64,000 nucleotides of DNA from Candidatus Saccharimonadales bacterium (lineage in GTDB: Bacteria; Patescibacteriota; Saccharimonadia; Saccharimonadales; EFPC-124): assembly GCA_035457485.1 (NCBI GenBank), contig DATIBO010000006.1, positions 14,300 to 78,299 of the forward strand. Direction: 5' to 3'. Position 1 is the stretch's first letter; every line of letters starts with the position of its first letter. A model generated the notes under the pieces. That model did not search any database, was not told the origin of the DNA, and worked only from the letters and a program-made list of their open reading frames with translations. Below, piece by piece: positions 12,412 through 53,523 of this stretch. The position numbers and the translations under genes were made by a program.

Positions 12412-12484
12412 GTAAACAGATGTATTATATCAGATTTGCAGTGAGACTGCGCGCCAGCCCAAACCAGCGCGCAGCTCCACCACC

Positions 12485-13120
12485 TTACAGTTTTCGGTTC
12501 TTGCCCATCTTCTCGTAGAAGATCTCGGTGATCGAGCGACGCTCAACAGGAACCAGTCGATCGCCGGGATAGATGGTTGCGCCGGACTTCTTGAGCGCTC
12601 GATCGAGCTGAACGCCGAAGTAGATACCCGGCTTCGCGGCGTTGATCATCCAGTCGGCGATGCCCGGGAACAGCTCGCTCGCCTTGAAGCACGGCTCGCG
12701 TGGCGACCTTGCGACCAGAGTCGCACCCCGACGAACGTGGCCAGGTGAAACGATCTCGAATCGATCACCTTCGAACACCTCGTCCTCGAGTAACCCTTTG
12801 AGCCTGAAGTTTGCGCCCAGACTCCCCGCCTCGAGCGGCTCCCCGAACTTGTTGTTCGACGTGCCGTTGCGCGCTTGCAGCCACTCTCGCAGCTCAGGCA
12901 GATGCTCTCCAGGGAATCCGTAGATCGCCTTGTTCTCACCTCCGTGCACCGACTCATCAGCCTGCTTGTCTATTCGCAGACCAAGTTTGTCGATCACCAC
13001 CGGACCACGCACAGGTTCTTTGATGAAACCAGACATGACAGGCTCACCACGGCGCTCCATAATTTCTCGGAGTTCCTGACACGCACATATTTCCTCGATA
13101 GTCGGAAAAATTTCTCTCAC
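12485..13120 (-). CDS. MOSC domain protein (YiiM-like), on a high-GC islet
   Basis: SGFIKEPVRGPVVIDKLGLRIDKQADESVHGGENKAIYGF is the MOSC N-terminal pattern. A hand-counted 60-nt sample gives 63% GC. The exact start is uncertain because GTG 13120 directly abuts GGGAGG. A GC hairpin lies at 12447-12474, 3' of the stop. Confidence 0.8.
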   Translation of the reverse strand: MREIFPTIEEICACQELREIMERRGEPVMSGFIKEPVRGPVVIDKLGLRIDKQADESVHGGENKAIYGFPGEHLPELREWLQARNGTSNNKFGEPLEAGSLGANFRLKGLLEDEVFEGDRFEIVSPGHVRRGATLVARSPREPCFKASELFPGIADWMINAAKPGIYFGVQLDRALKKSGATIYPGDRLVPVERRSITEIFYEKMGKNRKL

Positions 13121-13155
13121 CTCCCTCTGTAAAGCGGTAGAACCATAATAACCTG

Positions 13156-13184
13156 ATGACAGCTAAACCATCAAGCTTTATGAT
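13156..13184 (+). promoter_or_regulatory. Promoter ATGACA-17-TATGAT, 6 nt upstream of ATG 13191 (leaderless)
   Basis: ATGACA at 13156-13161, a 17-nt spacer, TATGAT at 13179-13184, attaat, then ATG. Confidence 0.55.
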
Positions 13185-13190
13185 ATTAAT

Positions 13191-13724
13191 ATGAGTGAGT
13201 ACGACAAAGCCCGAGAAGAATTCAAACCTAAAGTTATAAAAGTTCTTTTTATTGCCGAGTCCCCTCCTCCCTCTGCTAATGTGCAAAGCAGTAGACACTT
13301 TTATCGCCACGAAAAAATCCGCCGAGATGACAGGCTTTTTGTTAACACAATTAAAGCTCTGTATTCTTCGGCTGAGCATCTTACTGAAGCACAGATCGAA
13401 GAATCTAAAAGAGATTGGTTGAGCAAATTTATGAATGACGGATTTTATATGATCGAAGCGCTTCGAGAATCCCAGGTTCATGAAGTCACAAAAAAAGAAC
13501 GTCAACAAAAAATCGCAATTTCGGCTACTGATCTGGTAGAGCGCGTTAAAAAACTTGCAAACGCAGACACAAAGATCATCCTAATAAAGTCTAATGTTTT
13601 TGATATCGCATCCAAGCCACTGCGCGATGCCGGGTTTAATGTTTTAAATAAGGGGCTTGTGGACTACCCAGGACATTTTAATCAAACGGCTTACCGCCAA
13701 AAAGTACAAGATCTACTTGCTTAG
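13191..13724 (+). CDS. Hypothetical protein, 177 aa, low GC
   Basis: A long ORF with background composition lying between two high-GC islets. I recognise no domain with confidence. Confidence 0.6.
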   Translation: MSEYDKAREEFKPKVIKVLFIAESPPPSANVQSSRHFYRHEKIRRDDRLFVNTIKALYSSAEHLTEAQIEESKRDWLSKFMNDGFYMIEALRESQVHEVTKKERQQKIAISATDLVERVKKLANADTKIILIKSNVFDIASKPLRDAGFNVLNKGLVDYPGHFNQTAYRQKVQDLLA

Positions 13725-13803
13725 CGTTTTATTTAAAGACCCCTGAACATCTGCCGTGTAGCGCAAGATGCTCAGGGGTTAACGGCTTTTCGCTGCCGAG
13801 CGT

Positions 13804-14151
13804 CTACAACATCTTCCGGAGGTCCCCTTCGATCAATCTTGGCATTTCACCAGAGGCCAGGTCAAATCCGACGAGACCATCCCAGGCGTATCGAAGAACG
13901 TCCTCGATAAACCTGTCTTGAGCTTCTTCGGTAACCTCGAATTGCGGCTGGATTAACAGCGCAAAGCACGGACGGTCACCGAAAAAAAGGATGTCAGCAC
14001 TGCCGCGAGCCAGCGCAGGCCGAATGCCAGCGGTCGCAGAACGCGCTTCTGGCAGAATTAGCCTCGTGACTTGACTGTGCCGAGCTGGCGGATAAGTCAT
14101 AAAAAAGTAGAGCAAGCCGATCCGAACGATACCTTGCCGGACATCCGACAT
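13804..14151 (-). CDS. Hypothetical protein, 115 aa, on a high-GC islet
   Basis: The start is set at ATG 14151, preceded by AGGAG (gttaggagtcggtATG). An extended -10 TGaTATAGT lies at 14203-14211. The sample GC is 62%. An imperfect hairpin at 13741-13779 follows the stop. Confidence 0.5.
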   Translation of the reverse strand: MSDVRQGIVRIGLLYFFMTYPPARHSQVTRLILPEARSATAGIRPALARGSADILFFGDRPCFALLIQPQFEVTEEAQDRFIEDVLRYAWDGLVGFDLASGEMPRLIEGDLRKML

Positions 14152-14245
14152 ACCGACTCCTAACACTAGCTGCCGACGATTTGCTTACGACACCGTGTTT
14201 AGACTATATCATACGAAGTTAATTAAGTTTTTAAACTCTGGCAAA

Positions 14246-14270
14246 CAAAAAACCCCAGAATGGGGATTTT
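14246..14270 (-). terminator. Rho-independent terminator downstream of tRNA-Asp
   Basis: Stem CCCCA/TGGGG with a 3-nt loop. The minus strand reads AAAATCCCCATTCTGGGGTTTTTT. Confidence 0.65.
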
Positions 14271-14282
14271 AATAAGTTCACT

Positions 14283-14360
14283 TGGCGGGCCCGACCGGAT
14301 TCGAACCGGCGATCTCCTCCGTGACAGGGAGGCGTGATAGGCCAACTTCACTACGAGCCC
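14283..14360 (-). tRNA. tRNA-Asp (anticodon GTC), CCA encoded
   Basis: The reverse complement is GGGCTCGTAGTGAAGTTGGCCTATCACGCCTCCCTGTCACGGAGGAGATCGCCGGTTCGAATCCGGTCGGGCCCGCCA. The anticodon loop is CTGTCAC. Confidence 0.9.
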
Positions 14361-15461: not shown

Positions 15462-15955
15462 TATTGATCAGCGGCTTCACCGCCATATTTAGTTACAACA
15501 TCCGAAAGATCGTTATGGATTTTATCTGGATGATGTATTTTGTTTAACAACAGATCTCCTACGTAAGTCTGGATCACAACTGTTCCAAACCCAAACATAG
15601 ACGCACTTAATCCAGGAATATTATAGCTTATGTTTTGAATCTTAGATATGCCAAGGTCGATTACACTTCTATTGAAAAACCCTTTTTGAGTAATTTGTCG
15701 TAGTCGCTGATTCGTAACAATATAAACGCTAAAATACCAACCCATCCAGTGGTAAAAAAACAACACAATTCCCAACACCAACCCACCAAAAGCCAGCCAT
15801 AAATAGTTTAAGTTTTCAGGCCAAAGCAATACTGGAATACTCGCGATCAAAAATGGAATAAGTAACGCGTAAAATCCCTTTCGCATCATAATAGGGTGAT
15901 GACGAAATGTAAAAATTAAATTTTCACCTTCTTGCTGGCCTTCGAATTCTGGCAT
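15461..15955 (-). CDS. Membrane protein with bacterial PH (bPH_2/YdbT-like) domain
   Basis: Two TM helices are followed by YIVTNQRLRQITQKGFFNRSVIDLGISKIQNISY. The start is set at ATG 15955 because TATAAT (15962-15967) lies exactly 6 nt upstream. The TTG at 15973 in the ORF track falls inside that promoter. Confidence 0.6.
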   Translation of the reverse strand: MPEFEGQQEGENLIFTFRHHPIMMRKGFYALLIPFLIASIPVLLWPENLNYLWLAFGGLVLGIVLFFYHWMGWYFSVYIVTNQRLRQITQKGFFNRSVIDLGISKIQNISYNIPGLSASMFGFGTVVIQTYVGDLLLNKIHHPDKIHNDLSDVVTKYGGEAADQ

Positions 15956-16031
15956 GTTTTTATTATACAACAACCTTACTTTTATAATTTAATCAACAAT
16001 GCCGGTTTTGTCGCATTCCCCACATAATTTC

Positions 16032-16108
16032 TGGTACCCCGGGCAGGATTCGAACCTGCGACACCCTCCTTAGGACGGAGGTGCTCTGTCCAGCTGAGCT
16101 ACCGGAGC
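16032..16108 (-). tRNA. tRNA-Arg (anticodon CCT), CCA encoded
   Basis: The reverse complement is GCTCCGGTAGCTCAGCTGGACAGAGCACCTCCGTCCTAAGGAGGGTGTCGCAGGTTCGAATCCTGCCCGGGGTACCA. The anticodon loop is GTCCTAA. Confidence 0.9.
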
Positions 16109-16143
16109 ATAGTCTGCAACCAAAGTTGCAGATACATTATATA

Positions 16144-16773
16144 TTAATAGTACTTGCCGTACATGGTTTCGCTACCAGACAAATTATAATGGTAGATTTT
16201 TTCATCACCGAACCAAAGTTTGATTTCGTTTTCGGCTTCGGCTGCGGTTTCGCTAGCGTGGAATAAATTGTGAATCGATCGCTTTTCGGCGTTTGCAACT
16301 GCTGGGCTATCTACCGAAAAGTCACCACGGATGGTGCCGACGTCGGCCTTGAATGGAAGCGTGTGGCCAGCAAGCTTGCGGACCATTTCTACTGCTTGAA
16401 TACCTTCGACTACCATACACACCACTGGGCCTGACTGCATGAATTTGATTAGGCTCTCTAAAACTTCTTTGCCTAACTCGGCTTTGTCCTCGGAGCCTAA
16501 TACTTCCTTGGCAGTTACATCCAAATTTTCGAATCCGCTCAAACTTTTTTCGCCTAAACGTAACACCCAAGCCTCGTCGCTAGCTGGGTAATGTGCCCTA
16601 ACCTGCTCTTCGGTTGGAATTAACATTTTCATCGCCACAACCTTAAGTCCGGCTTTTTCTAGCCGATGAATAATCTCGCCTACAAGTCCTCGCATAACAC
16701 CGTCGGGTTTGATCATACAATATGTGCGTTCAAACTTAACTTTATGTACTACAGGATGAAGTTCTTTAGACAT
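16144..16773 (-). CDS. ndk: Nucleoside diphosphate kinase (long form)
   Basis: ERTYCMIKPDGVMRGLVGEIIHRLEKAGLKVVAMK and NLFHASE (active-site His) are present. AAGGAG Shine-Dalgarno lies upstream. Confidence 0.9.
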   Translation of the reverse strand: MSKELHPVVHKVKFERTYCMIKPDGVMRGLVGEIIHRLEKAGLKVVAMKMLIPTEEQVRAHYPASDEAWVLRLGEKSLSGFENLDVTAKEVLGSEDKAELGKEVLESLIKFMQSGPVVCMVVEGIQAVEMVRKLAGHTLPFKADVGTIRGDFSVDSPAVANAEKRSIHNLFHASETAAEAENEIKLWFGDEKIYHYNLSGSETMYGKYY

Positions 16774-16875
16774 TTGAGCTCCTTATTTTTGAATACTGTA
16801 ACATAAATAGGCTCGTAAGATAAATAGAAGTCGGCAAGCTGTAAAATTGAATAAAAAATGTGCTCACATAAACCA

Positions 16876-16884
16876 TGGTATACT
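16876..16884 (+). promoter_or_regulatory. Extended -10 TGgTATACT, 6 nt upstream of ATG 16891 (leaderless xerC)
   Basis: TG at 16876-16877, TATACT at 16879-16884, acgctt, then ATG. Confidence 0.5.
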
Positions 16885-16890
16885 ACGCTT

Positions 16891-17820
16891 ATGTCTAAGT
16901 ATATTTCTGAGCTGATAGTAGACTTTTTAGAATATTTAGAAGTTGAGCAAAACCGTTCTCAAAAGACAGCCGAAAACTACCACCTTTACTTAATGCGCCT
17001 AGTTGAGTTCGCTGACGACATTAAGATCGAACAGATAAACGATGAGCTTGTTCGCAAGTGGCGGCTCTGGCTAGCGAGATTTAAAGATGACAAAGGGCAG
17101 GAGCTGTCTAAGTTAACTCAATCTTATCACCTAATTGCGCTTAGGAGTTTTTTAAAATTCTGCTCTAAGCGAGGAATTAGTTCCCTAGCACCTGATAAAA
17201 TCGAGCTGCCCCGCGTAAAAAAACGTCAAGTTAGTTTTTTGAACGATGATGAGCTTAAAAGATTATTTGAGTCCATTAAAGCAGCTAGCCTAATTGGTCT
17301 TCGCGACAGGGCTATTGTGGCACTTTTATATTCTAGCGGTCTGCGTGTATCTGAACTGGCAGGCTTAAACAAGGATCACATAAACCTAAAACGCGGCGAA
17401 TTTACTGTGCGCGGTAAAGGGCAAAAAGATCGCGTAGTTTTTATCGATTCATATGCAAATCAATTACTCAACGAATATATTGACGCACGCGATGATAACG
17501 ACCAAGCTCTCTTCATCCGTTATAGTGGAACAAAAAATGTAGACAACAGCGGAGACTTTGCCAGACTAACCCCACGTAGTATTCAGCGAATTGTTAGCGG
17601 ATATGCAAAGTTGGCTGGCATAACCAAGCAGGTTTCACCGCATACTTTGCGACACAGCTTTGCTACCGATCTTTTAATGAATGGGGCCGATCTTAGAAGC
17701 GTGCAGTCATTGCTTGGCCACAGCAACATAGCGACCACGCAAATTTATACACATGTAACCGACCCTCACTTAAAAGATATACATGAACGATTTCACTCTG
17801 TCGCCGAACAAGAGACCTAA
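16891..17820 (+). CDS. xerC: Tyrosine site-specific recombinase XerC/XerD
   Basis: An N-terminal SAM-like domain is present (FLEYLEVEQNRSQKTAENY). The catalytic residues are in ...LRVSELAGL..., HTLRHSFATDLL, and LGHSNIATTQIYTHV. The start is chosen by promoter geometry. Confidence 0.85.
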   Translation: MSKYISELIVDFLEYLEVEQNRSQKTAENYHLYLMRLVEFADDIKIEQINDELVRKWRLWLARFKDDKGQELSKLTQSYHLIALRSFLKFCSKRGISSLAPDKIELPRVKKRQVSFLNDDELKRLFESIKAASLIGLRDRAIVALLYSSGLRVSELAGLNKDHINLKRGEFTVRGKGQKDRVVFIDSYANQLLNEYIDARDDNDQALFIRYSGTKNVDNSGDFARLTPRSIQRIVSGYAKLAGITKQVSPHTLRHSFATDLLMNGADLRSVQSLLGHSNIATTQIYTHVTDPHLKDIHERFHSVAEQET

Positions 17821-18974
17821 GGACAATTGTTATCTGCAGAGTTCGCGGCATCGGCCACACGCATATTCTTGCAAATGTCGTCCGTGGTCTCGGCTGCAAA
17901 TTCAGGGAAACTGGTGATTGGGTTTAGCCTTACTCGAGCCTGCACCCGCCTAAAAACATCTTGTGACTTACCTGTAGAATCTATAAGCGGCTGCACTTCA
18001 TTCATTTCCACGCTAGAGTTAGTACTACTGTTGTGAAGTTGAACTCTAAAATGAGTCTTGCCGTAAATCGGCGTTACGCGCAAAGAGAAGTTGTTCGCAT
18101 TACTAGCAAGTCCGGCAGGCAGCTGTAAGGTTGCAGTACATAAATATGATCCGTAACTAGTAAACGTACTGCTGCATTGAACAAATGGACTTGGTGAGCT
18201 TTTAGAACTATCGAACTGATGACCTGAATCGGCGGTACCTAAGTCGATCACTGTTGCCGAACCACCACTAACGGGAGCAAGGAAGACTGACCTGCTCCTT
18301 GTGTCAAGATCTGACCTGTTAAAGCTTCCTGAGTTTGGATATCCTAGCAGCTGAACTCGCAAATATGCGGGGTAGCCAAGACTACTCCAACTGCTTGCTC
18401 CGGTTTGCGGCGGCAAAAGAGGTAGAGGAGCATTTGGCGCTAATGCATTTGGGCGACCATCTGCCTCATCACTAACTGTTTCGCTAAGTAAGTGCCAAGA
18501 AACCTTAATCTGATTAAAATCGCTCACTCCCCTTAGAGGGAAAACTTTACTCACATTAGCCGATGAACTATCAACATAATCCGGCGAATTAAGCTTTACA
18601 TTTAAGCAAGTGTACGACTGGTTAAGGTCGTTACTTGCAACGGCTTGACCAGTGATATTTAACTGTGTCCTAATCTGAGTTTTACTGGTTAAACTATCAC
18701 AGTTATTGGAGTCCGCCCCAAAGGCAGTCGCCAGCTCGGCTCTTACATCTGCTGGAGTTGCTGGATTATAGTAGGCCAATAAGGCGCGCTTGCCGTCCTC
18801 AATCCCCGATTCCGCAGCCGCTCTTGCGTTCGCGCTTAAATCGTTATCCACCGATTGCCTTTGCTCGGTTATCATGATTCGCAAAAAGCTAACCGTGATA
18901 ACTGTTACCAGCAGCATAAAAAATATTACGGTAAATAAAGATACGAAACCGGATTCTTTATTTGAGTAACTCAT
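17817..18974 (-). CDS. PilX-like pilus-associated protein (N-terminal PilX_N-type anchor)
   Basis: GFVSLFTVIFFMLLVTVITVSFLRIMITEQRQSVDNDLSANARAAAESGIEDG is typical of the PilX N-domain. It is the last gene of the minor pilin cluster. Confidence 0.65.
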   Translation of the reverse strand: MSYSNKESGFVSLFTVIFFMLLVTVITVSFLRIMITEQRQSVDNDLSANARAAAESGIEDGKRALLAYYNPATPADVRAELATAFGADSNNCDSLTSKTQIRTQLNITGQAVASNDLNQSYTCLNVKLNSPDYVDSSSANVSKVFPLRGVSDFNQIKVSWHLLSETVSDEADGRPNALAPNAPLPLLPPQTGASSWSSLGYPAYLRVQLLGYPNSGSFNRSDLDTRSRSVFLAPVSGGSATVIDLGTADSGHQFDSSKSSPSPFVQCSSTFTSYGSYLCTATLQLPAGLASNANNFSLRVTPIYGKTHFRVQLHNSSTNSSVEMNEVQPLIDSTGKSQDVFRRVQARVRLNPITSFPEFAAETTDDICKNMRVADAANSADNNCP

Positions 18975-19636
18975 TAATTTTGACCTCCCATAGATACAGT
19001 TGTACTAAAAGTAGACGTTGCGCAAAATTCTGAACCACCAACACCAGTGCAACGTACCCAAGTTGCTGGATTATTTGGATCAGGAGGAGCAGCCGGGAAC
19101 GGATCAAGCAAAGTAGGATTAGTTACATCCTCCTTTGTGGAAAGTTGCATTGTAATTGTAACTAAGTCAGTATTCGTATTTGGAACAACGCTCAGCATCT
19201 GTACCCAAACTCTATCTGTTAAAAGAGAGGTTGCATTAGCCGCTGGCACGTTTGGATAAACCCCAGAAGAAGCCGCGCACATGGCATTGCCCGGATCGTT
19301 CACGCGGGCCATTGTAACCGAAGGATTACCGACACTATCATATTTATTGGTTGTTGCACCTTGATAGTTCCAAACATAACTTACACTACCAAAACAGACT
19401 CTTCCGGCTGGAATAGCCGTAGTAACTACGTTACTCGATGACCTTGCAGCACGCGCCATGTCATCAACCGAATTCCTTGCGGTTTGATTGATCTCTTTAA
19501 CAGTTAGGCCTTTATTGTAAGTCCTCATAACCTGCACCACAGCCAGTACCGTAAACAAAATGATAAATCCAATAAATGCAATGGCTAGCATGAGCTCGAC
19601 TAATGTAAAACCAGATTGTTTACCGTGACGGGTCAT
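18974..19636 (-). CDS. Type IV minor pilin (prepilin N-terminal cleavage/methylation domain)
   Basis: KQSGFTLVELMLAIAFIGFIILF is a class III signal (G|FTLVE). Confidence 0.7.
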   Translation of the reverse strand: MTRHGKQSGFTLVELMLAIAFIGFIILFTVLAVVQVMRTYNKGLTVKEINQTARNSVDDMARAARSSSNVVTTAIPAGRVCFGSVSYVWNYQGATTNKYDSVGNPSVTMARVNDPGNAMCAASSGVYPNVPAANATSLLTDRVWVQMLSVVPNTNTDLVTITMQLSTKEDVTNPTLLDPFPAAPPDPNNPATWVRCTGVGGSEFCATSTFSTTVSMGGQN

Positions 19637-20162
19637 ATAGCCTCACAGACGTTACGCTACGTTGCTGCCCCGTTCCGGGTCCCTGCCAACAAGCTCGCAC
19701 AACAAAATCGACGTATGGCTGCAAATTACCGTTTGATTTTTGTGCTTCAATCCAGATACCTTGCCCAGGCGAAGGAACCGTTGTTGGCTGAGTATCATTA
19801 TAGAGCTGTGACTCAATTCTAGTGGATGTTTGTGTCATGTAAAAGTCGGTTCCGGGTTGGTTTTTGTCGCATGTTTCATCGTAGCTTATCGTTGCGCTTG
19901 CCGGTATACCTGACACGACTGCCTGCCAAGTTTGCCCGTTGTCACTTGTAGGGTCAACCGCGTAGTCGTCTCTTACCTTGCGCAACATCTCCACCTGGCC
20001 GTTTATTGTCAGGCGGACCTGCGAATGCTCAACGGCATTTTGACCAGCTGAAAGTCCGCGATTCATGATGGTAATAGATCCAACGATTACAGCTCCAAGT
20101 ATAATTATAGACAATAAGACTTCAATCAAAGTGTCGCCTGATTCCAAATTTCTACGATCCAT
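19620..20162 (-). CDS. Type IV minor pilin-like protein
   Basis: LESGDTLIEVLLSIIILGAVIV is a pilin-like N-terminus. The start is set at the internal ATG 20162, which overlaps the upstream gene by 11 nt. The alternative start is 20195. Confidence 0.55.
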   Translation of the reverse strand: MDRRNLESGDTLIEVLLSIIILGAVIVGSITIMNRGLSAGQNAVEHSQVRLTINGQVEMLRKVRDDYAVDPTSDNGQTWQAVVSGIPASATISYDETCDKNQPGTDFYMTQTSTRIESQLYNDTQPTTVPSPGQGIWIEAQKSNGNLQPYVDFVVRACWQGPGTGQQRSVTSVRLYDPSR

Positions 20163-45860: not shown

Positions 45861-46361
45861 ATGATCGACACGGCAAGTCCACAAGCCAGGGCGCTACGGC
45901 GCGCAGTTCTGTCTGAGTCCATGGCATGGTCACGCACTCGTCCGCGAGTCGTGATGACCCGCGAAGAGCTTCTGGCCGCAAAGAACAGCGCAGACATCAG
46001 CTGGGTGCTGCCCGAGCTTGGCAGCGGAACAGCCCAAGAGGAAGCGTGGCTAGAGGCCGTGAGAAACGAAGCCACGGGGCTTCAGCGGTCCCTCGAAGAC
46101 AGTATGAAACTCGCGTATATGGACTTCGCACTCTGGTTCATTAACCTCGAACTCGGGCTACTATCGCACGAGAACCACGCTCACTGTGCAGATGGCCACC
46201 GATCAAGCACATTCTGGGTGTACAACCTGAATCAGCTCTTCTACTTCTCGGATCGTGGCATCATGCACACCGAAGAAGTGGTCAAGCTCGTGGTTGACGA
46301 GCATCGCAGGCGCAACCCGAACTGTCGCCTCACCTACGAAGCGGCGTGGCCAACCTGGTAG
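45861..46361 (+). CDS. Hypothetical protein, 166 aa (high-GC islet)
   Basis: ATG 45861 is preceded by GGGAGAG. The sample GC is 62%. A 13-bp GC hairpin at 46378-46409 follows the stop. I recognise no domain. Confidence 0.45.
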   Translation: MIDTASPQARALRRAVLSESMAWSRTRPRVVMTREELLAAKNSADISWVLPELGSGTAQEEAWLEAVRNEATGLQRSLEDSMKLAYMDFALWFINLELGLLSHENHAHCADGHRSSTFWVYNLNQLFYFSDRGIMHTEEVVKLVVDEHRRRNPNCRLTYEAAWPTW

Positions 46362-46420
46362 CAGGACAAATCGTCAAGAGGGGGCTGCCCACATCCGGGC
46401 GGCCCCCTCGCAAGTCAAAT

Positions 46421-48535
46421 TTATACCTGCTTAGCTTCTTTCATACTCAAGTTCAAGCGACCTTGATCATCGATTGCAGTTAACTTAACCGTTACCTTCT
46501 GACCTTCTTTAAGTACGTCACTGACATTTTCTACGCGCTTGTCGCTAATTTGACTAACGTGCACCAAACCGTCACGACCAGGCATAATATTTACAAATGC
46601 GCCAAATTCCATCAGTTTAACAACTGTTCCTTCGTAGATTTTACCAACCTCCGGTTCAGCCACAATGTCGCTGATCATCTTAAGCGCAGCTTCGATTGCT
46701 TTGCCGTCTACTGCAGCAACAGTCACTAAACCATCATCTTTAATGTCGATCTCAGCACCAGTCTCAGCAATAATCTTGTTAATTACTTCGCCGCCTTTAC
46801 CGATGACTTCGCGGATTTTTTCTGGCTTGATCATCAGTTTTTCTATCCGCGGCGCATATGGACTAAGTGTTTTGCGTGGCTCAGCGATTGTCTCAAGCAT
46901 ATGGTTTAAAATAAACGCACGACCCTCCCTGCCTTGTTGCAGCGCTTGTCTTAGTACGTCGACATCAAGACCATGGACTTTCATATCCATTTGAAGCGCC
47001 GTGATTCCCTTGCTCGTTCCTGTAACCTTAAAGTCCATGTCGCCAGCAAAATCTTCGGCGTCTGCAATATCGCTCAAAATTACGATCTTGTCGCCGTCCT
47101 TCATTAGACCCATAGCGATTCCGCTTACAGGAGCTTTTAGCGGCACGCCAGCATCCATTAAAGCCAAGGTACTGCTACAAGTTGCGGCCATGCTGGTTGA
47201 TCCGTTTTGGCTCATAATCTCGGTTACTGTACGAATTGCGTACGGGAATTCTTCTTCGCTTGGCAAAACTGCAGTTAGTGCGCGTTCGGCAAGATAGCCG
47301 TGGCCGATTTCGCGGCGACCCGGGCTGCCTAATCGGCGGATTTCACCAACCGTGTAGCCAGGTGCGTTGTAGTGATGCATATAACGGCGCTCTTGATCGC
47401 GTTCCATTGTATCTACGATTTGCGCGTAGCTGAGAGGGGCCAAGGTTACAATGTTCATACCTTGAGTCATGCCGCGCGTAAACAAGCTGCTGCCGTGAGC
47501 GCGTGGCAAGAATCCCACTTCGGAGCTTAACGGGCGAATTTCGCTTGGTTTACGACCATCCGGACGAACACCGTCGCCGATAATTCCTTTACGAACGTCC
47601 TTGTGTACTGCCATTGAGAAAGCTTCGTCATATTCGCCTTTGGCGTTAGCGTATTCTTCAATCTCTTGCTCAAACGCTTCGTGCATTTGGTTACGCAGAT
47701 TGCCCATTAATTCGTTGCGTTCAGGATATGGTGCGCGCATTGCCTCGCCCAACTTACCCTCTACCCAACCGTCAACTTTGCTCACGATATCTTCGTTCGG
47801 CAGAGTTAGTTCGTACTCTTGTTTGACTACGCCAACTTTTTGTACGAGTTCTTGCTGCAGCTTAATCGCTGGCTGGATCGCCTCTTGCGCCCAAGCCAAA
47901 GCTTCGACAACCTGTTCTTCGGTAACCTGATTTGCACCAGCCTCTACCATCATAATGCCAGATTCAGTCCCGGCAACTACAAGATCAAGCTCGTTTTTAT
48001 CCATTTCAGCTAGTGGCAAAAATGCAGCTGGCTTGCCATCTTTTATGCCAACGCGTAAACCCGCGACCGGGCCCTCAAAAGGCGCGCCCGTAAGCATTAA
48101 GGCGGCGCTTGCTGCGATCATCGCGACCATATCAGGCCTAAAACTTGGGTCCATACTCAAAACGCTAGCGACAACTTGAACTTCGTGCCGATAACCTTTT
48201 GGCCAAAGTGGGCGGATTGGGCGGTCGATCAAGCGACCGATTAAAATAGCTTCGTCGCTCGGGCGGCCTTCGCGCTTAATAAAACGACTGCCGCTGATTT
48301 TGCCAGCAGCGTAAAATTTTTCCTCGTAGTCCACACTGAGCGGAAAATAGTCAAAGCCAACCACCGGTTTTGGTGCAACCATTGCAGTTCCCAAAACAAC
48401 TGTATCGCCGTAGCGAACGATCACACTGGCGCTAGTTCTAAAGCCAACTCGGTTGACCTCTAAGCTGAGTTTTCGACCGCAAAAATCAGTCTCTACTTTA
48501 ATAATATCTTTGCCGTAAGGGTTGATTGTGCCCAT
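46421..48535 (-). CDS. pnp: Polyribonucleotide nucleotidyltransferase (PNPase)
   Basis: Two RNase PH domains, a KH domain and an S1 domain (GKIYEGTVVKLMEFGAFVNIMPGRDGLVHVSQI) are present. Confidence 0.95.
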   Translation of the reverse strand: MGTINPYGKDIIKVETDFCGRKLSLEVNRVGFRTSASVIVRYGDTVVLGTAMVAPKPVVGFDYFPLSVDYEEKFYAAGKISGSRFIKREGRPSDEAILIGRLIDRPIRPLWPKGYRHEVQVVASVLSMDPSFRPDMVAMIAASAALMLTGAPFEGPVAGLRVGIKDGKPAAFLPLAEMDKNELDLVVAGTESGIMMVEAGANQVTEEQVVEALAWAQEAIQPAIKLQQELVQKVGVVKQEYELTLPNEDIVSKVDGWVEGKLGEAMRAPYPERNELMGNLRNQMHEAFEQEIEEYANAKGEYDEAFSMAVHKDVRKGIIGDGVRPDGRKPSEIRPLSSEVGFLPRAHGSSLFTRGMTQGMNIVTLAPLSYAQIVDTMERDQERRYMHHYNAPGYTVGEIRRLGSPGRREIGHGYLAERALTAVLPSEEEFPYAIRTVTEIMSQNGSTSMAATCSSTLALMDAGVPLKAPVSGIAMGLMKDGDKIVILSDIADAEDFAGDMDFKVTGTSKGITALQMDMKVHGLDVDVLRQALQQGREGRAFILNHMLETIAEPRKTLSPYAPRIEKLMIKPEKIREVIGKGGEVINKIIAETGAEIDIKDDGLVTVAAVDGKAIEAALKMISDIVAEPEVGKIYEGTVVKLMEFGAFVNIMPGRDGLVHVSQISDKRVENVSDVLKEGQKVTVKLTAIDDQGRLNLSMKEAKQV

Positions 48536-48773: not shown

Positions 48774-49040
48774 CTATTTGCGAAGCCCTAGTTTTGCAAT
48801 GAGAGCCGTGTAGGCCTCGTAATTTTTGCCCTGTAAGTATTTAAGGAGGCGTTTGCGCTTACCAACCATCTGTAGCAAGCCGCGACGACCATGAAAGTCG
48901 TGCTTGTGCTCTTTAAGATGCTCAGTAACCTCTTTAATGCGTTCGGTTAAAACTGCAACCTGAACTTGAGGAGAGCCAACGTCGTCTTTGTGTGTACGAA
49001 CAGACTCAATTACTGTAGTTTTCTTGTCTTTAGTAATCAT
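48774..49040 (-). CDS. rpsO: 30S ribosomal protein S15
   Basis: [48 protein letters not shown] is the S15 signature. Confidence 0.95.
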
Positions 49041-49135
49041 CCCTAGGATTTTATCAGATCACGATCTGTTTTGCAATAAGTTTTGATAAGTTCGGTGCGA
49101 GGGCTCGGGTCCTGGTCGGACCCGGCCCCCTCACT

Positions 49136-49702
49136 TCAGGCAGGTTGGGTGGATCCTGCGATCTGCGCCAGCCGGTTGAGCCTGCGCAGCTTCACCCACA
49201 TCACGAAGCACACCAGAAGGTACCCCGACGAGGCGAAGATCAGCCAGCCGATCGGCCGCTCGTCCACGTACACGCGGACCACGGCATCGTTCTCGTAGCA
49301 GACCGAGCGGTACGGCTCCGGGTTCTCGAACCCGCAGACGTACTGGATCGTGTCGCCCGTATTGACCTTGGTGCCCGCGTTCAGAACGACGGTGTGGCCG
49401 GCGTAGGTGACGACGGTCGAGATCTCGTTGCCGCCGATCATTTCGGACATCTGCCCGAGCACGACGGACGAGGTCCAGTGCGTACGGTTCGGAACATTCT
49501 CGGCCCGCATGTCAGCCTTGCTGAGACCGGCACCAGCGCCGGCCAGGCCGATCACCGATGCGAGCGCCGAAGCGACCATGACCCACTTGATCCACCGAGC
49601 GCTCTTACTGAGCACGGCGGCCAGCCCAAGCAGAACGAGTGCTCCCAGCAGTACGGCGGCAACGCCAGCGACATTACTCTGAGAGGGATCGACTGCGATC
49701 AC
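49136..49702 (-). CDS. Putative 3-TM membrane protein, ~188 aa (high-GC islet)
   Basis: GTG 49702 is preceded by AGGGGAAAA. The TM helices are VAGVAAVLLGALVLLGLAAVL, WVMVASALASVIGLAGAGAGL and WLIFASSGYLLVCFVMWV. The sample GC is 63%. The antisense ORF 49145..49723 looks like a high-GC artefact. Confidence 0.5.
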   Translation of the reverse strand: MIAVDPSQSNVAGVAAVLLGALVLLGLAAVLSKSARWIKWVMVASALASVIGLAGAGAGLSKADMRAENVPNRTHWTSSVVLGQMSEMIGGNEISTVVTYAGHTVVLNAGTKVNTGDTIQYVCGFENPEPYRSVCYENDAVVRVYVDERPIGWLIFASSGYLLVCFVMWVKLRRLNRLAQIAGSTQPA

Positions 49703-49765
49703 TGTTTTCCCCTGTTCACTTGAAGTGAGACCAACTAATTTGGCTAGTAAATTATACAATAAATT

Positions 49766-50440
49766 CTATGATAATTCAATCAACCTGTACTCGTCAGCAA
49801 TGGTTTGCGCTTGTTCGATTTTAAACTTCCCTACCACTGTTCTGCGCAACTCGCTCGTGTATGCACCAGTTTGTAAAACGCCTCCGATATCTTGCGTCAA
49901 AGTCCTAATGTACGTTCCACTGCTCACGTGAGTACGAATTTTCATTTCAGGGTAGTTATACTCTACTAAATCCAGGTTATAAACCTTAACTTTTCGCACA
50001 GGCATATCAACCTGCACGCCTTTTCGCGCCAAATTGTATGCCCGCTGACCATTGATTTTGATGGCACTGTAGATTGGTGGGGTTTGCTCGATTTCACCTG
50101 TAAATTTAGCAAGAACGGTTTTAACCTCCTGTAAACTTGGCTCCTTATTAGAGATTTCACTAATCTCACCCTCTGGATCACCGGTGGTACTTGTTTTGCC
50201 TAAAATAATTGTCGCGTCATAGGTTTTATCAAGCTTACTAAAGTCGCCTGCGCGCTTTGTGTATTTACCGGCAACAATAATCATAAGTCCGGTTGCAAAC
50301 GGATCAAGCGTACCTGTATGACCGACTTTCACTTTTTTACCAGCCACTTCGCTTAAACGTCGTCGAACGCGCGCAACTACGCCAAAACTGGTCATACCAG
50401 ATGGCTTATCAATCAAAATAATGCCCGAAGGGTTTTGCAT
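49766..50440 (-). CDS. truB: tRNA pseudouridine(55) synthase
   Basis: GIILIDKPSGMTSFGVVARVRR...KVGHTGTLDPFATGLMIIVAG is the TruB signature. Confidence 0.92.
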   Translation of the reverse strand: MQNPSGIILIDKPSGMTSFGVVARVRRRLSEVAGKKVKVGHTGTLDPFATGLMIIVAGKYTKRAGDFSKLDKTYDATIILGKTSTTGDPEGEISEISNKEPSLQEVKTVLAKFTGEIEQTPPIYSAIKINGQRAYNLARKGVQVDMPVRKVKVYNLDLVEYNYPEMKIRTHVSSGTYIRTLTQDIGGVLQTGAYTSELRRTVVGKFKIEQAQTIADEYRLIELS

Positions 50441-50464: not shown

Positions 50465-52435
50465 CTATTGGCCAGGGATCTTAAACTGACCTGGATCGAC
50501 TGGCGCCGGAGGTAAGTTTGACGCATTAGCATCAAAAGCACTAGGTGGGGTTGGTGGCATTTGTGGATTTGATGGCAACTCAGGCAAGGCTGGTGGCATC
50601 GGTGGCATAGCAGGAGCCCCTGGTTGCCCAGGCTCGCTAATAGGAAGTTGTGGCATCGGCGGTATCGGCGGTAATGCACCGAATCCAGATGGTTGGTTAG
50701 GCGTTAGATCGGTTGTTACTGGCTGCGGTGGAGTTACTGGCGCTGGCTCTGTGGGTGCAACTGCGAACGGCTCGGCAGCCGGCTGCTCTATCGGTGCAAC
50801 TGCGGGTGCGGGCTGAACAACAGGCTCTTCGGCGACTGCAGTTTGTGGCGCTTGCTGCTCAAAAGGTTGAACCTGCAATGATTCTTGAGCACCTACATCC
50901 TCGCGAGGCTGTCCGGCAGGATTAAAGGGCTGAGCTGCATAGGCTTGTTCTAGGTCTTTACGAGCATTTTGCTCAAGCTCGGCCAAGGTTGGCGCCGGAG
51001 CAGCTACTGGCTCAGGCGGCGCTTGCTCTGCAGGCTCTTGTGCGGGAGTAGTTTCTTGCGGCACTTGCGGTTGTGGCGCTTCTTCAATGACTTCTTCTGA
51101 CCCAATCATAGGTGCATGTTCTACCGCCGGCTCGTTCACAGTGGCCTCTACAGCGACAGGTTCGGCTGCGGCGGCTGATTCTACTATGGCTGGTGCAGCA
51201 ATCTCCTCGGCAGGGGGAGTTACCTCTTCGTCTTTAGCCTCTGTTGGCACCTCACCATGCTTGAGTGTACTAACTTTGTCCCTAAATTTACGCTCTTCTT
51301 CTTCGGCAAAATTTTTATCAGTTAAAGCTTGCGCGGTCGTAGCACTAAATGGCGAGCCCATTGTTGGCGGTTCTAAGCGCCGATCGCGCCAGGACTTTTC
51401 GCCCAATGTTTGAGATTCGGCTTCGTCCTCGGGGGCTTCTGTCAAAAACTCGTGAGTTGGACCGGCTGCCTGCTTGGTTTCTTCTTTGATCGCCTGCTTT
51501 AACTCGTCTAAGTTTGGCTCAGACGGCGCTGCGGTTTTCGGTAATGCTGCCTCCAATTCTTTTTCGGCAACTGCCAAATCCTGGGTTCGTTTGGCCGGCT
51601 TTTGCTCCGCATGCGCAATCGAAAGCTCGCCATTACCAGCTGCAGCAACTTCGGCCGGCTGGCTTACTTCTGGGAGTGGCCTTTGTGGCTGCAAATTAGT
51701 AGCTACCAATTGCTGGTTGGCGCCGGCTGCCATCATTTGAGCGGCCATGGTCATAACTGCAGGAGTCGTATGCTGATTGCTAAATCTTTCGGTAGCTGCA
51801 ACAAGACCCGTAAGTAGCGCCGTAGAAATCTGAGCGTCAACCAAACCTGGTTTTTGCATTTTGTCCGACAAACCAATTATCATTTCGCAAAGTGAGCTAG
51901 CATTTGGATCATGCCAGTCTACCGTGCCTAAGCCGCTCTGCTGATTATTGGCGTTAATAGTTACAACCGTAGCGTCGTGTAGTATTCGGCCATGTGCAAC
52001 AATTGCAGCGTCGAGATCTTCTCGTTTTTCTACACCGAGTGCAATAATAAGCTCAACGTTAAAATCGCCTTGACTAAATTTAAAGTCATCTTGGGTGATT
52101 GTCGTGCGATATGGAGTAATAAAGATGCGGACAACGTCTTCCTCTACTTTGTAGCGCAAACGATCGGCTTTATCTTTATCAAGCGATATTATAAAGTCGC
52201 GCAAACCATTAACGTTGCTTTCAAAGGTTTTGTTTGGCTCCAAAAAGTTGATTGCCGGCGGAATCGCTCCACTAAATACTGCCGTGGCATGTTTATCTAA
52301 CTTGTTCAGCAAAAGTGCTAAACCCAACGCTGCTGCTAGCGAATCCACGGACGGATTTGCGTTAACGGCTACTAAAATATTAGTAGACTTTTGAATTTTA
52401 TCTACGATCTGTTGCTGAGCTGCACCTGGTTGCAT
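50465..52435 (-). CDS. DHH/DHHA1-like domain protein with degenerate catalytic motifs and a ~400-aa Pro/Ala/Glu/Gln-rich C-terminal tail
   Basis: The N-terminal ~250 aa align by eye to NrnA-like phosphoesterases. The motif positions read VAVNANPSVDS and VVTINANNQ instead of DHxxxDxD and DHH. The remainder is low-complexity sequence (PAPEPVAAPAP, MPPMPPALPELP). Confidence 0.7.
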   Translation of the reverse strand: MQPGAAQQQIVDKIQKSTNILVAVNANPSVDSLAAALGLALLLNKLDKHATAVFSGAIPPAINFLEPNKTFESNVNGLRDFIISLDKDKADRLRYKVEEDVVRIFITPYRTTITQDDFKFSQGDFNVELIIALGVEKREDLDAAIVAHGRILHDATVVTINANNQQSGLGTVDWHDPNASSLCEMIIGLSDKMQKPGLVDAQISTALLTGLVAATERFSNQHTTPAVMTMAAQMMAAGANQQLVATNLQPQRPLPEVSQPAEVAAAGNGELSIAHAEQKPAKRTQDLAVAEKELEAALPKTAAPSEPNLDELKQAIKEETKQAAGPTHEFLTEAPEDEAESQTLGEKSWRDRRLEPPTMGSPFSATTAQALTDKNFAEEEERKFRDKVSTLKHGEVPTEAKDEEVTPPAEEIAAPAIVESAAAAEPVAVEATVNEPAVEHAPMIGSEEVIEEAPQPQVPQETTPAQEPAEQAPPEPVAAPAPTLAELEQNARKDLEQAYAAQPFNPAGQPREDVGAQESLQVQPFEQQAPQTAVAEEPVVQPAPAVAPIEQPAAEPFAVAPTEPAPVTPPQPVTTDLTPNQPSGFGALPPIPPMPQLPISEPGQPGAPAMPPMPPALPELPSNPQMPPTPPSAFDANASNLPPAPVDPGQFKIPGQ

Positions 52436-52550
52436 AGTTTATCTTTTTATTTTAGCCTTTTAGCTCACTTTAGCATAAGCTTGTTTTTTACGTCAAATAT
52501 AAAAACTTGAGGCAGTGTTGGACCGGCTGCAGAACTTGACCATATTAGTC

Positions 52551-52579
52551 TTTACAGATCAGCCATCTTAATGTATAGT
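52551..52579 (+). promoter_or_regulatory. Promoter TTTACA-17-TATAGT for rpsT
   Basis: TTTACA at 52551-52556, a 17-nt spacer, and TATAGT at 52574-52579 preceded by TG. Confidence 0.5.
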
Positions 52580-52621
52580 TGTTAACTGAACTTTCAACTA
52601 CTTTAAGCGAGACATTGAAAA

Positions 52622-52939
52622 ATGCCAATCATCAAATCTGCTATCAAAAAGATGCGTCAAGACGAAGTGCGTCGCACCCGTAACGCTCAGTTTAAGCGCA
52701 ACCTAAAAGCCGCAATTAAGGCTTTTCAGGCTAAACTTACTCCTGAAACTTTTAAAAAAGCCCAGTCAGAAATCGACAAAGCTGTTAAAAAGAATATTCT
52801 AGAAAAAAACACTGCTTCTCGACGCAAAGCTAGCCTGGCCAAAGCCGCAAAAGCAGCTGCCAGCGAAGCTCCAGCAAAAAAGCCGGCCACTAAAAAGACC
52901 GCAACCAAAAAACCTGCAGCAAAAAAAGCAGCCAAATAA
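52622..52939 (+). CDS. rpsT: 30S ribosomal protein S20 (Lys/Ala-rich C-terminal extension)
   Basis: MPIIKSAIKKMRQDEVRRTRNAQFKRNLKAAIK is the S20 signature. Confidence 0.92.
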   Translation: MPIIKSAIKKMRQDEVRRTRNAQFKRNLKAAIKAFQAKLTPETFKKAQSEIDKAVKKNILEKNTASRRKASLAKAAKAAASEAPAKKPATKKTATKKPAAKKAAK

Positions 52940-52940
52940 C

Positions 52941-52968
52941 AAAACGCCGCCAACTGAGCGGCGTTTTT
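52941..52968 (+). terminator. Rho-independent terminator of rpsT
   Basis: Stem CGCCGC/GCGGCG with loop CAACTGA, followed by T5. Confidence 0.8.
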
Positions 52969-52978
52969 AGTGCGTAGC

Positions 52979-53007
52979 ATGACATAAAGTTATTTTTATG
53001 TTATAAT
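52979..53007 (+). promoter_or_regulatory. Promoter ATGACA-17-TGtTATAAT driving the high-GC gene at 53067
   Basis: ATGACA at 52979-52984, a 17-nt spacer, TG at 52999-53000, and TATAAT at 53002-53007. Confidence 0.55.
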
Positions 53008-53066
53008 ATATTAATCTGCAAGCGCTTGTTCGCGTGCAGCGCGACAAGCCACTCTGAGGAGCAAAC

Positions 53067-53453
53067 TTGACTTCCAGCCAAAGAACCACGCGGCTACCGC
53101 AGAGTCATCCTCTGCTGAACGGCCTGCCCTACTTCGTCGTGGGCGAAGCCGTGATCAACGGTCTGTTCGCAGCCATCGAGTCGGGAAGCGTCCCCCGCTT
53201 ACCGATCATCGAAAAGCGCGAGACCAGCCCCGAGGACTTGAAGATCGAAGCCAGCATCGAAATCATCGAGGTCGGCTACGTCAAGCTGGTCGAGCTAACC
53301 GTGACCTGTCCGTTCATCGTCCGGCACCTCGACCAGTTCAGATCACGGATACTCAGCACCTTCCTCGAGACGGGCTACGACACCATGATCCCGCGCAGCC
53401 TCGTGGTGCGCGCCGAGAACAGCTTCACACTGCGCTTCCTCACCAAGGAGTAA
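53067..53453 (+). CDS. Hypothetical protein, 128 aa (high-GC islet)
   Basis: The TTG start is preceded by GAGGAG. The sample GC is 60%. Hairpins flank the gene at 53024-53049 and 53459-53513. Confidence 0.45.
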   Translation: MTSSQRTTRLPQSHPLLNGLPYFVVGEAVINGLFAAIESGSVPRLPIIEKRETSPEDLKIEASIEIIEVGYVKLVELTVTCPFIVRHLDQFRSRILSTFLETGYDTMIPRSLVVRAENSFTLRFLTKE

Positions 53454-53523
53454 CCCTTTTGCGACAAGTACGTCTTGGCCGCAAAGTGCGGTTCAAAGAT
53501 GTGCTTGTCGCAATAAAAACTTA

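Follow-up and report, generated by a model that had tools for sequence, protein, structure and literature searches.

Seven GC-rich single-gene islets between housekeeping genes of a soil Saccharimonadales genome: candidate cassettes of a flexible genome

Introduction

Saccharibacteria live on Actinobacteria and have tiny genomes, and which genes they gain, keep and swap is central to their adaptation to the host. A 64-kb stretch of the genome of a soil Saccharimonadales bacterium (the window, meaning this stretch at its full length) raises the matter in a concrete form. Between its housekeeping genes lie seven short GC-rich segments, here called islets I1 to I7, each built around a single gene or, in I3, one or two possible micro-genes. 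How did such segments come to sit in a genome of quite different composition, and why has their GC content not drifted down to that of their surroundings? An earlier note, made from the letters alone, took them for recent and independent acquisitions from actinobacterial hosts, inserted one gene at a time by an uncharacterised mechanism. They are read here, with a probability of roughly 55%, as autonomous single-gene cassettes of the flexible genome of soil Saccharimonadales, which would evolve fast and recombine through their flanks, and not as seven recent captures.

Results

Islet cores were delimited by change-point analysis of the seven intergenic intervals named in the earlier note. The window as a whole has a GC content of 0.451, and the analysis returned seven cores of 321-745 nt with 57-66% GC (Table 1). 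The intergenic remainder beside the cores amounts to 2-191 nt per side with a GC of 0.20-0.50, and because these leftover flanks are so short and only 20-50% GC, the transitions are sharp. GC at third codon positions (GC3) averages 0.408 in the 63 other open reading frames (ORFs) of the window (s.d. 0.040, maximum 0.47); the ORFs of I1, I2 and I4-I7 lie between 0.56 and 0.83 (Table 1), that is 3.8-10.6 s.d. above this background. GC3 exceeds GC at second positions (GC2) in all six and GC at first positions (GC1) in five, the exception being I2 (GC1 0.64, GC3 0.56), which marks these ORFs as real coding sequence under GC pressure and not random GC-rich DNA. Codon choice is of the type seen in high-GC organisms (ATC 0.86, AAG 0.85, TTC 0.85, TAC 0.86, CTG plus CTC 0.70), and arginine and lysine make up 7.6 and 3.1% of residues compared with 5.2 and 6.3% in background genes. 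Translational selection was considered as the source of the high GC3 and rejected, since the ribosomal-protein genes have a GC3 of 0.36-0.44 and the shift extends to amino-acid usage. No further GC-rich islets lie in the 10 kb beyond the window end.

Two other GC-rich stretches, 29844-30589 and 50518-51769, were rejected as islets; with high GC1 or GC2 and normal GC3, they owe their GC to amino-acid composition. The latter, 1.25 kb long, is due to a 656-aa ORF (50465-52435; GC1 0.66, GC3 0.41) that has no Pfam match and is conserved in relatives only in part. Two genes without counterpart in the 80 syntenic loci described below, yajQ (42527-43027) and a 189-aa ORF (55325-55894), have GC3 values of 0.38 and 0.43; being accessory with normal GC3, they indicate that the accessory genes of this genome are not all GC-rich.

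Positions 31720-62939, which take in I3-I7, are 100% identical to two Logan contigs of SRR25158331 made with a different assembler. Two SRR25158331 contigs join through a 29-nt overlap at 45692-45720, within the udg 5' end and within the recombination tract next to I5 described below, where a branch in the assembly graph may mean that the slot is polymorphic in the sampled population.

Each islet carries the predicted parts of a self-contained gene. Folding placed a strong GC hairpin directly 3' of the stop codon in 7/7 islets (-29 to -37 kcal/mol, z -3.9 to -7.7), and by the criterion of the terminator scan none of the seven has a U tract; native terminators of the window, for example that at 52941-52967, do have one. 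With respect to the canonical definition of an intrinsic (Rho-independent) terminator, all islet hairpins therefore show the stem-loop and lack the U tract, and they would serve as terminators or as stabilisers of the 3' end. Upstream, the top sigma-70-like matches of the 36-54-kb region lie directly ahead of I4, I7, I6 and I3, with a weaker match at I5, and those ahead of I1 and I2 reach 9/12 only. The rpsO promoter beside the I6 hairpin is conserved in relatives.

No signature of a dedicated insertion mechanism was found at the boundaries. Terminal inverted repeats were limited to chance-level 12-nt ones that differ at each islet, flank-to-flank alignments looking for target-site duplications were not significant (the I6 flanks hold a weak repeat, p about 0.09), and no boundary motifs shared among the islets were found. 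Pfam, NCBIfam and PHROG searches of the islet ORFs gave no integrase or transposase domain, and Rfam gave no match within the islets.

A separate motif, RAACTTATY, occurs 14 times in the window compared with 3.4 expected. Copies lie just 3' of the hairpins of I4 (41669-41677), I6 (49075-49093, two copies) and I7 (53517-53525), and another lies right after tRNA-Asp (14271-14279). In two relatives' loci, L083 and L089, GAACTTA(T/C) strings are found 3' of GC-rich genes, often just ahead of a -35 element of the form TTGCAx. It may act as an upstream element of promoters, or be left over from the 3' end of the gene before it.

As a description, the earlier note stood up well. Its seven sharply bounded high-GC single-gene islets in a genome of about 45% GC are borne out by the change-point cores and GC3, and their foreign-like composition by codon and amino-acid usage, both of high-GC type. 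It was equally right about the stem-loops without U tracts, about each islet being a unit of one gene that has a promoter-like site and a hairpin to itself, about the absence of integrase, transposase and terminal repeats as far as the domain and repeat searches go, about the Saccharimonadales source and about the names of the junction genes (tRNA-Gly/Thr, tRNA-Asp, TlyA/FtsJ, YchF, YajQ, FtsK, UDG, PNPase, S15, TruB, S20 and HolA). Two statements held in part. GC3-rich ORFs are present in six islets, I3 being the exception in having no clear codon periodicity; GTG or TTG starts are found in I3, I4, I6 and I7, and not in I1, I2 and I5, which have ATG in the database gene calls.

For comparison across the order, 80 syntenic loci were retrieved via PNPase from species-representative genomes, all of them Saccharimonadales or unclassified bins with a PNPase identity of at most 77%. 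A YajQ-based metagenome scan led to soil and rhizosphere relatives with a genome GC of 0.45-0.58 (relatives' loci are coded by L and a number). Among the loci cited below are L089, an 8.8-kb contig from SRR33619856; L090 and L091, contigs from SRR11006474 and SRR11006475; L020 (UBA1050, DCDR01000001.1); and L092 (Ga0307516_10000003). Exact-match look-ups of S18 and S20 for further close relatives returned the source genome only.

The junctions had been taken to be conserved, which they are not. The rpsO|truB gap measures 48-7620 bp in 63 loci (20 under 300 bp), the udg|pnp gap 47-6162 bp in 73 (33 under 300 bp), the rpsT|holA gap 78-4282 bp in 41 (25 under 300 bp) and the ftsK-to-RNase J interval 119-5020 bp in 52, a spread from about 50 bp to 7.6 kb across the 80 related genomes. 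Since both lengths and contents vary, these slots are general hot spots of gene turnover in the Saccharimonadales. Homologues of the islet proteins were found in 0/80 syntenic loci. Gap contents there are mostly at or under local GC, and GC3-outlier ORFs number one each in 4 of 73 relatives' loci compared with five in the window, so that this genome stands out by how dense and how strong its GC contrasts are. Patchy presence with empty sites, the pattern expected of genomic islets, was found at yajQ|ftsK, truB|rpsO and tlyA|ychF.

Three islets have counterparts in the same slots of diverged relatives. I5 had a single match in a search of 5.8 billion proteins, namely a 91% identical orthologue (GC3 0.71) in the udg|pnp slot of L089, where the gene order is as in the window (ftsK, 235-aa gene, yajQ, RNase J, udg, I5, pnp, rpsO) and housekeeping genes are 77-86% identical to those of the window in DNA, with synonymous divergence (dS) of 0.86-2.3. 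The 235-aa gene encodes a lipoprotein in the same slot as I4 and homologous to it (36% identity, GC3 0.72, dN 0.69), and its hairpin is orthologous to that of I4, with one compensatory change from a C-G to a U-A pair. For I1, the same slot of L090 holds an orthologue at 41% identity; contigs L090 and L091 share with the window the order divergent 178-aa gene, MOSC, tRNA-Thr, tRNA-Gly. Proteins flanking I1 are 73-80% identical to those of L090, and 4-fold sites are saturated (identity 0.24-0.39). GC3 of the MOSC gene is 0.70 in the window and 0.60 in L090, compared with 0.30-0.38 for its L090 neighbours, and the hairpin sequence is largely conserved despite MOSC proteins just 41% identical.

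At least three islets, I1, I4 and I5, thus appear to have been in their slots before related species diverged. Orthologous high-GC genes at the same junctions in diverged relatives were the very observation that the earlier note had named as telling against its proposal; with these same-slot orthologues or homologues in L090 and L089, at synonymous sites near or at saturation, its claim of recent, independent acquisitions fails for these three. The islet proteins are 36-41% identical where neighbouring genes are 73-93% identical (I1, I4), and such very fast protein evolution largely explains their orphan look.

The history of I5 can be followed in more detail. Between the window and L089, dS is 0.20 for I5 compared with 0.86 for the adjoining udg and 1.29 for the adjoining pnp, and a tract of high identity extends over the gene and both sides of it (Table 1). 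Scored in steps of 60 nt, identity within the tract is 0.87-0.98, with a dip to 0.72-0.82 at 46161-46280; outside, most steps give 0.62-0.90, with a second patch of 0.92-0.93 at 46521-46610. The tract is read as the footprint of a homologous-recombination import that carried the cassette together with native flank. As it spans native flank, no new insertion mechanism is needed for spread, and the uncharacterised single-gene insertion process of the earlier note is not supported, there being no shared boundary repeats either. The native flanks that recombined with I5 show no enrichment in GC. Natural competence is established for cultured Saccharibacteria, in which a promoter-ORF-terminator single-gene cassette has been placed in an intergenic site through homology arms of about 1 kb (PMC10633639); in Patescibacteria, transfers of single genes are reported to stay mostly inside the phylum (PMC12455944). 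The predicted structure of the I5 protein was too poor for a fold search (pLDDT 51).

Nearby, contigs from five further samples encode the identical S15 protein (48774-49040), whose gene has a dS to L089 of 0.23 compared with 1.29 for the adjoining pnp. This low value could reflect strong codon constraint or another recombination import.

A wider family stands behind I4. In L094/L096, L097, L101/L102, L104 and L106 the gene directly after yajQ encodes a lipoprotein of 300-338 aa and is followed by a GC hairpin. These genes have a GC3 of 0.78-0.92 compared with genome medians of 0.57-0.65, and their products are mutually 28-42% identical, except for the near-identical pairs L094/L096 and L101/L102. 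The I4 pair is linked to them by blastp (8e-5) and hhalign (E 6.6e-5, probability 64%), from which I4 is predicted to be a divergent member of a family of GC-rich lipoprotein genes found behind yajQ in many soil relatives. One of four scanned members, that of L097, passes the model for YpfJ-type neutral zinc metallopeptidases (PF04228; 29.4 bits, cut-off 23.2), and inspection of the alignments of the yajQ-following lipoproteins and I4 showed no HExxH zinc site; at most, the family would be a degenerate, probably non-catalytic YpfJ-type relative. I4 has no Pfam match, was its own only hit in the word-indexed search of 5.8 billion proteins, and gave a predicted structure too poor for a fold search (pLDDT 35). 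The yajQ|ftsK slot is empty in L092, L093 and L107, and comparison with these empty sites puts the yajQ stop codon immediately on one side of the I4 cassette and a conserved promoter, TTGCxT-17-TAyAaT, immediately on the other.

The region next to the I4 hairpin, 41500-41680, comprises the ftsK 5' end, two promoter-like sites and an AT-rich hairpin, TGTAGTAAAAACTGCTACA. It is 83-94% identical to L089, above the roughly 80% of neighbouring genes, and the outer ftsK promoter is recognisable even in the distant relatives L092, L093 and L107. Such conservation suggests regulatory sequence under strong constraint.

The persistence of high GC was compared with passive decay. Calibrated on the 4-fold sites of housekeeping genes shared by the window and L089 (0.49 identical, 0.39 strong/weak differing), a two-state model leaves about 41% of an initial GC excess, so that a starting GC at 4-fold sites (GC4) of 1.0 would stand at 0.64 today. 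The I4 pair has GC4 values of 0.76 and 0.69 (42 sites), and the yajQ-following family is GC-elevated in every genome, whatever the genome GC. With I4, the MOSC gene and the yajQ family above passive decay, the residue of one old transfer does not fit; something must sustain the GC, be it alleles brought in from a high-GC pool or a process that favours GC. With two sequences per gene, repeated allele replacement and a locus-specific GC-favouring process remain inseparable.

Possible donors were sought in the word-indexed set of 5.8 billion proteins (I1, I4 and I5), with HMMER among 1.84 billion cluster representatives (I1), and in plasmid and viral collections, which covered subsets of I1, I4, I6 and I7. 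In the word-indexed set the MOSC protein of I1 found itself only. HMMER gave one protein 41% identical to it, the rest being 32-51% identical over the matched stretches with E values of 1e-20 or weaker, and the matches that were looked up were metagenome sequences; outside the clade, MOSC homologues come no closer than 36-44% identity. In the plasmid collection tblastn returned nothing for I4, I6 and I7, and for the MOSC protein 31-37% identity only, to proteobacterial and other genes, on which basis a plasmid origin was rejected. A phage origin was likewise rejected, there being no PHROG matches, no relatives in IMG/VR and housekeeping genes as neighbours. At 90% identity, I2, the I3 ORF, I6 and I7 group with nothing from other genomes. 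Outside the clade, close homologues are lacking for every islet protein searched, and the actinobacterial donor of the earlier note has not materialised.

One gene elsewhere in the order does have such a signature, and served as positive control. L020, from a 49% GC genome, carries in its rpsO|pnp slot an NCS2 permease gene (8315-9790) with a GC3 of 0.91, the best plasmid-collection matches of which are all from Actinomycetota (Actinomyces oris 61.8%, Nonomuraea 59.8%, Arthrobacter 55%). This is likely a real transfer from a host-type bacterium, and it indicates that transfer from such bacteria into slots of this kind does happen in the order. In L092, a 55% GC relative, positions 15462-20112 encode an AT3-SGNH acyltransferase (GC3 0.86) and a GtrA-GT2 glycosyltransferase (GC3 0.81) compared with a median of 0.56; plasmid-collection matches of these envelope genes are about 30% identical and taxonomically mixed.

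The products of the islets lean to the cell envelope, as had been noted, with a putative lipoprotein in I4, a membrane protein in I6 and, among the GC3-outlier ORFs of all loci, hydrophobic segments in 20/32 compared with 27% overall (Fisher p = 2e-5). I2, I5 and I7 are soluble orphans. The I1 protein matches Pfam MOSC (PF03473) with an E value of 1.7e-13 and 51.1 bits (cut-off 22.7); its best named model, the YiiM-type 6-hydroxyaminopurine reductase, scored far under that model's cut-off. By eye, the cysteine of its REPC motif aligns with the QPC motif of homologues, and I1 is accordingly a putative divergent MOSC enzyme with the conserved cysteine kept. I2 is a singleton cluster with no Pfam or NCBIfam match, and its slot in L090 holds an unrelated low-GC gene. 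I7 is also a singleton cluster, with no family, plasmid or viral match. PDB sequence searches gave nothing informative.

The I6 cluster consists of two gene calls of the same genome only. Among contigs with identical S15, the truB|rpsO slot shows three states, including that of the window: L083 (with L084 and L086) has unrelated GC-rich membrane ORFs on the opposite strand (GC3 0.86 and 0.68), and L085 and L087 are empty. In I3, an exact 11-nt direct repeat on the minus strand, AGGAGGTGAAA, lies at 36667-36677 and 36836-36846, 169 nt apart and one copy before each ORF, which suggests a tandem duplication of ribosome-binding site and micro-ORF. I3 has no clear codon periodicity, which makes its coding status uncertain, and micro-ORF B has no entry in the protein collection; the islet may encode one or two small hydrophobic peptides. 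Its tlyA|ychF slot is empty in L044 and holds, in L018, an unrelated 130-aa secreted ORF (GC3 0.60 compared with 0.42) with a GC hairpin behind it.

Elsewhere in the window, a full-length RNase P RNA of bacterial class A lies at 2410-2751 on the minus strand (247 bits).

Table 1. Islet cores, coding sequences (CDS) and predicted signals in the window (numbering from the first nucleotide of the window)
Feature	Position	Strand	Details
I1 core	12438-13058		GC 0.60
I1 CDS, MOSC-domain protein, 191 aa (HSE28994.1)	12485-13060	-	longest ORF to 13120; GC3 0.67-0.70
I1 3' hairpin	12438-12483	-	-32.3 kcal/mol, z -5.3; tRNA-Thr/Gly promoter next
I2 core	13740-14091		GC 0.57
I2 CDS, 115-aa orphan (HSE28996.1)	13804-14151	-	120-aa ORF with GC 0.54, GC3 0.56
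I2 3' hairpin	13739-13779	-	-34.1 kcal/mol, z -5.8
I3 core	36463-36783		GC 0.62
I3 micro-ORF A, 41 aa (HSE29020.1)	36708-36833	-	hydrophobic N-terminal half; GC1/2/3 0.64/0.48/0.64; AGGAGGTGAAA upstream
I3 possible micro-ORF B, 48 aa	36521-36667	-	signal-peptide-like; second AGGAGGTGAAA copy ahead
I3 3' hairpin	36461-36494	-	60-nt region 36461-36520 at -29.0 kcal/mol, z -4.6
I3 promoter-like site	36858-36886	-	TTGAGT-17-TATAAT, 10/12; overlaps tlyA end
I4 core	41681-42425		GC 0.64
I4 CDS, 248-aa putative lipoprotein (HSE29027.1)	41720-42466	-	GC3 0.79; N-terminus MRRYRLTLVLVAILAAAGC
I4 3' hairpin	41680-41719	-	60-nt region 41660-41719 at -31 kcal/mol, z -3.9
I4 promoter-like site	42516-42544	-	TTTACA-17-TATAAT, 11/12, best of the region; overlaps yajQ stop codon
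I5 core	45846-46411		GC 0.60
I5 CDS, 166-aa soluble orphan	45861-46361	+	GC3 0.68; longest ORF from 45837
I5 3' hairpin	46378-46409	+	-33.9 kcal/mol, z -6.0; conserved in L089
I5 promoter-like site	45799-45827	+	TTTACA-17-TACTAT, 9/12
High-identity tract with L089	45530-46460		udg 5' end (about 200 nt), AT-rich promoter region, I5, pnp 3' end
I6 core	49093-49670		GC 0.66
I6 CDS, 188-aa membrane protein (HSE29034.1)	49136-49702	-	longest ORF to 49759; GC3 0.77; three hydrophobic segments
I6 3' hairpin	49095-49134	-	-32 kcal/mol, z -6.2; about 20 nt upstream of rpsO promoter
I6 promoter-like site	49751-49779	-	TTGAAT-17-TATAAT, 10/12; overlaps truB end
I7 core	53022-53491		GC 0.60
I7 CDS, 128-aa orphan (HSE29038.1)	53067-53453	+	GC3 0.83, highest of the islets
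I7 3' hairpin	53459-53513	+	-37.2 kcal/mol, z -7.7
I7 promoter-like site	52979-53007	+	ATGACA-17-TATAAT, extended TG, 11/12

Discussion

The reading of the islets as cassettes of a flexible genome can be put together as follows. A cassette would consist of an AT-rich, native-looking sigma-70 promoter, a Shine-Dalgarno sequence, a coding sequence of high-GC type and a GC hairpin without U tract after the stop codon, and would occupy an inter-operon slot that varies across the order. I1, I4 and I5 would have been resident in their slots before related species split, with proteins evolving very fast relative to their neighbours. Cassettes would pass between lineages by homologous recombination through conserved flanking genes, as the I5 tract shows for one of them, in a manner consistent with the natural competence of cultured Saccharibacteria. 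Their ultimate origin would probably be a high-GC donor, and their GC would since have been upheld through recurrent replacement of alleles from a gene pool of high GC or through a GC-favouring process.

Several points weigh against this reading. Promoter and terminator function in the islets is predicted from sequence, the nearest relatives are known from short metagenome contigs only, and the link of I4 to the wider lipoprotein family has weak scores. The decay model is crude and had just 42 four-fold sites to work with for I4. For I2, I3, I6 and I7 no orthologue was found, and these four may be recent acquisitions. A donor or reservoir was not found for any islet in the protein, plasmid and viral collections.

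Three other accounts were weighed. Chimeric assembly or mis-binning, which would have put fragments of a high-GC organism into the source genome, is essentially refuted: although the genome is metagenome-assembled and a Logan contig join falls near I5, I3-I7 are reproduced without a mismatch by contigs from another assembler, every insert opens at a Shine-Dalgarno site and closes at a hairpin, exactly between native genes, and orthologous islets occur in other samples (SRR33619856, SRR11006473-5 and JGI metagenomes). Improbable for its part is recent, independent transfer from high-GC actinobacterial hosts to the epibiont by an uncharacterised single-gene mechanism, which the same-slot orthologues of I1, I4 and I5, in species near or at synonymous saturation, refute as a general explanation. 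Codon and amino-acid usage of high-GC type would suit such transfer, as would hairpins without U tracts, a terminator style common in Actinobacteria; the L020 permease, best matched by Actinomyces, Nonomuraea and Arthrobacter at 55-62%, is a case of the kind, the truB|rpsO slot of close relatives holds different GC-rich genes or none, and four islets are without known orthologue. Set against these are the lack of any close homologue in the databases searched, with the MOSC protein no nearer than 36-44% to anything outside the clade, the place of the I4 family deep within the Saccharimonadales, the movement of I5 by homologous recombination with its native flanks, and the absence of shared boundary motifs or target-site duplications.

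An endogenous account, in which accessory genes of the Saccharimonadales have their GC raised and held by a locus-specific process, is less likely than the cassette reading. Repair or gene conversion with a bias towards GC could act at recombination hot spots, or a biased hypermutation could be linked to the rapid diversification of envelope proteins. Such a process would explain why lineages that differ in genomic GC and are saturated at synonymous sites still show the elevation, and why all three codon positions and the amino acids are shifted in a mutation-like way, not codon choice alone; the extreme divergence of the proteins relative to their neighbours fits as well, and orphan status would follow from fast evolution. 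Recombination is directly evidenced at one slot, that of I5, but the native flanks recombined with it show no GC enrichment, and heteroduplex repair presumably cannot act across alleles just 36% identical. Most other slot contents in relatives, moreover, are at or under genome GC, and no bacterial process is known to give a GC3 shift of 0.3-0.4 with boundaries this sharp.

If the islets are cassettes of a flexible genome, the window would display that genome in compact form, as self-contained units for surface or secreted proteins, each in a fixed slot between operons of housekeeping genes, and the islets would mark candidate host-interaction genes. Their persistent GC bears on what sets GC content in bacteria. 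There is an outside chance that fast-evolving, mostly envelope genes are actively held at a host-like, actinobacterial-type high GC over the long term, by a locus-specific GC-favouring process (biased repair, for instance, or hypermutation tied to diversification) or by continuing exchange with a host-linked reservoir; if true, the composition of reduced epibiont genomes would be evolving in a way that is new.

Among known systems, acquired genomic islets are the first to compare. Lawrence and Ochman are said to have provided the amelioration framework for compositionally atypical, horizontally acquired genes. The islets share with such genes a GC, GC3 and codon usage that depart from the resident genome, patchy presence, and a position at operon boundaries, two of them by tRNA genes; they differ in being single genes only, with no mobility genes or boundary repeats and no donor lineage found, and in having a GC excess in orthologues that is larger than passive amelioration allows. 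Foreign DNA in bacteria is also usually AT-richer than the host genome, whereas here it is GC-richer. Phage morons, single genes with their own promoter and terminator between conserved genes and often of deviant GC, have the same plan of promoter, one ORF, hairpin, conserved neighbours and deviant composition. For the islets, the corresponding autonomy is at most predicted, from consensus promoter matches and strong hairpins without U tracts, and they lie in a cellular chromosome among housekeeping genes, with no phage family or viral contig matches.

Integron cassettes likewise consist of a single ORF followed by an imperfect inverted repeat. The islets, in contrast, are dispersed and have their own promoters; their hairpin sequences are mutually unrelated, with no attC-like sequence in common, and no integrase domain was found in the islet ORFs or in the Pfam-annotated gene calls at 31.7-73 kb, the genes at 1-31.7 kb not having been domain-scanned. 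An integron or attC identity was therefore rejected.

Replacement flexible genomic islands and hypervariable surface loci of the capsule or O-antigen type are exchanged by recombination in conserved flanks. As in these, one position holds different or highly diverged genes in relatives, the content is variable and leans to the envelope, and import runs through flanking homology. The islets are, however, single genes of 0.3-0.75 kb where island clusters span 10 kb or more, their composition lies above the genome average and not below it, and one of them encodes a cytosolic MOSC protein.

A full-text literature search found no description of high-GC islets in Saccharibacteria. The nearest parallel within the group is experimental: in the laboratory, a promoter-ORF-terminator cassette was inserted into an intergenic site via flanking homology (PMC10633639), and the I5 tract resembles a natural counterpart of that insertion. 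The I5 tract retains flanking homology over just a few hundred nt, with a diverged relative as donor, and the competence on which the experiment relies is known from cultured Saccharibacteria. Cassette exchange of this kind would thus be nature's version of laboratory cassette insertion by natural transformation. Placed among these systems, the islets are accessory genes of atypical composition in replacement slots, and the feature that sets them apart as a puzzle is their persistent high GC.

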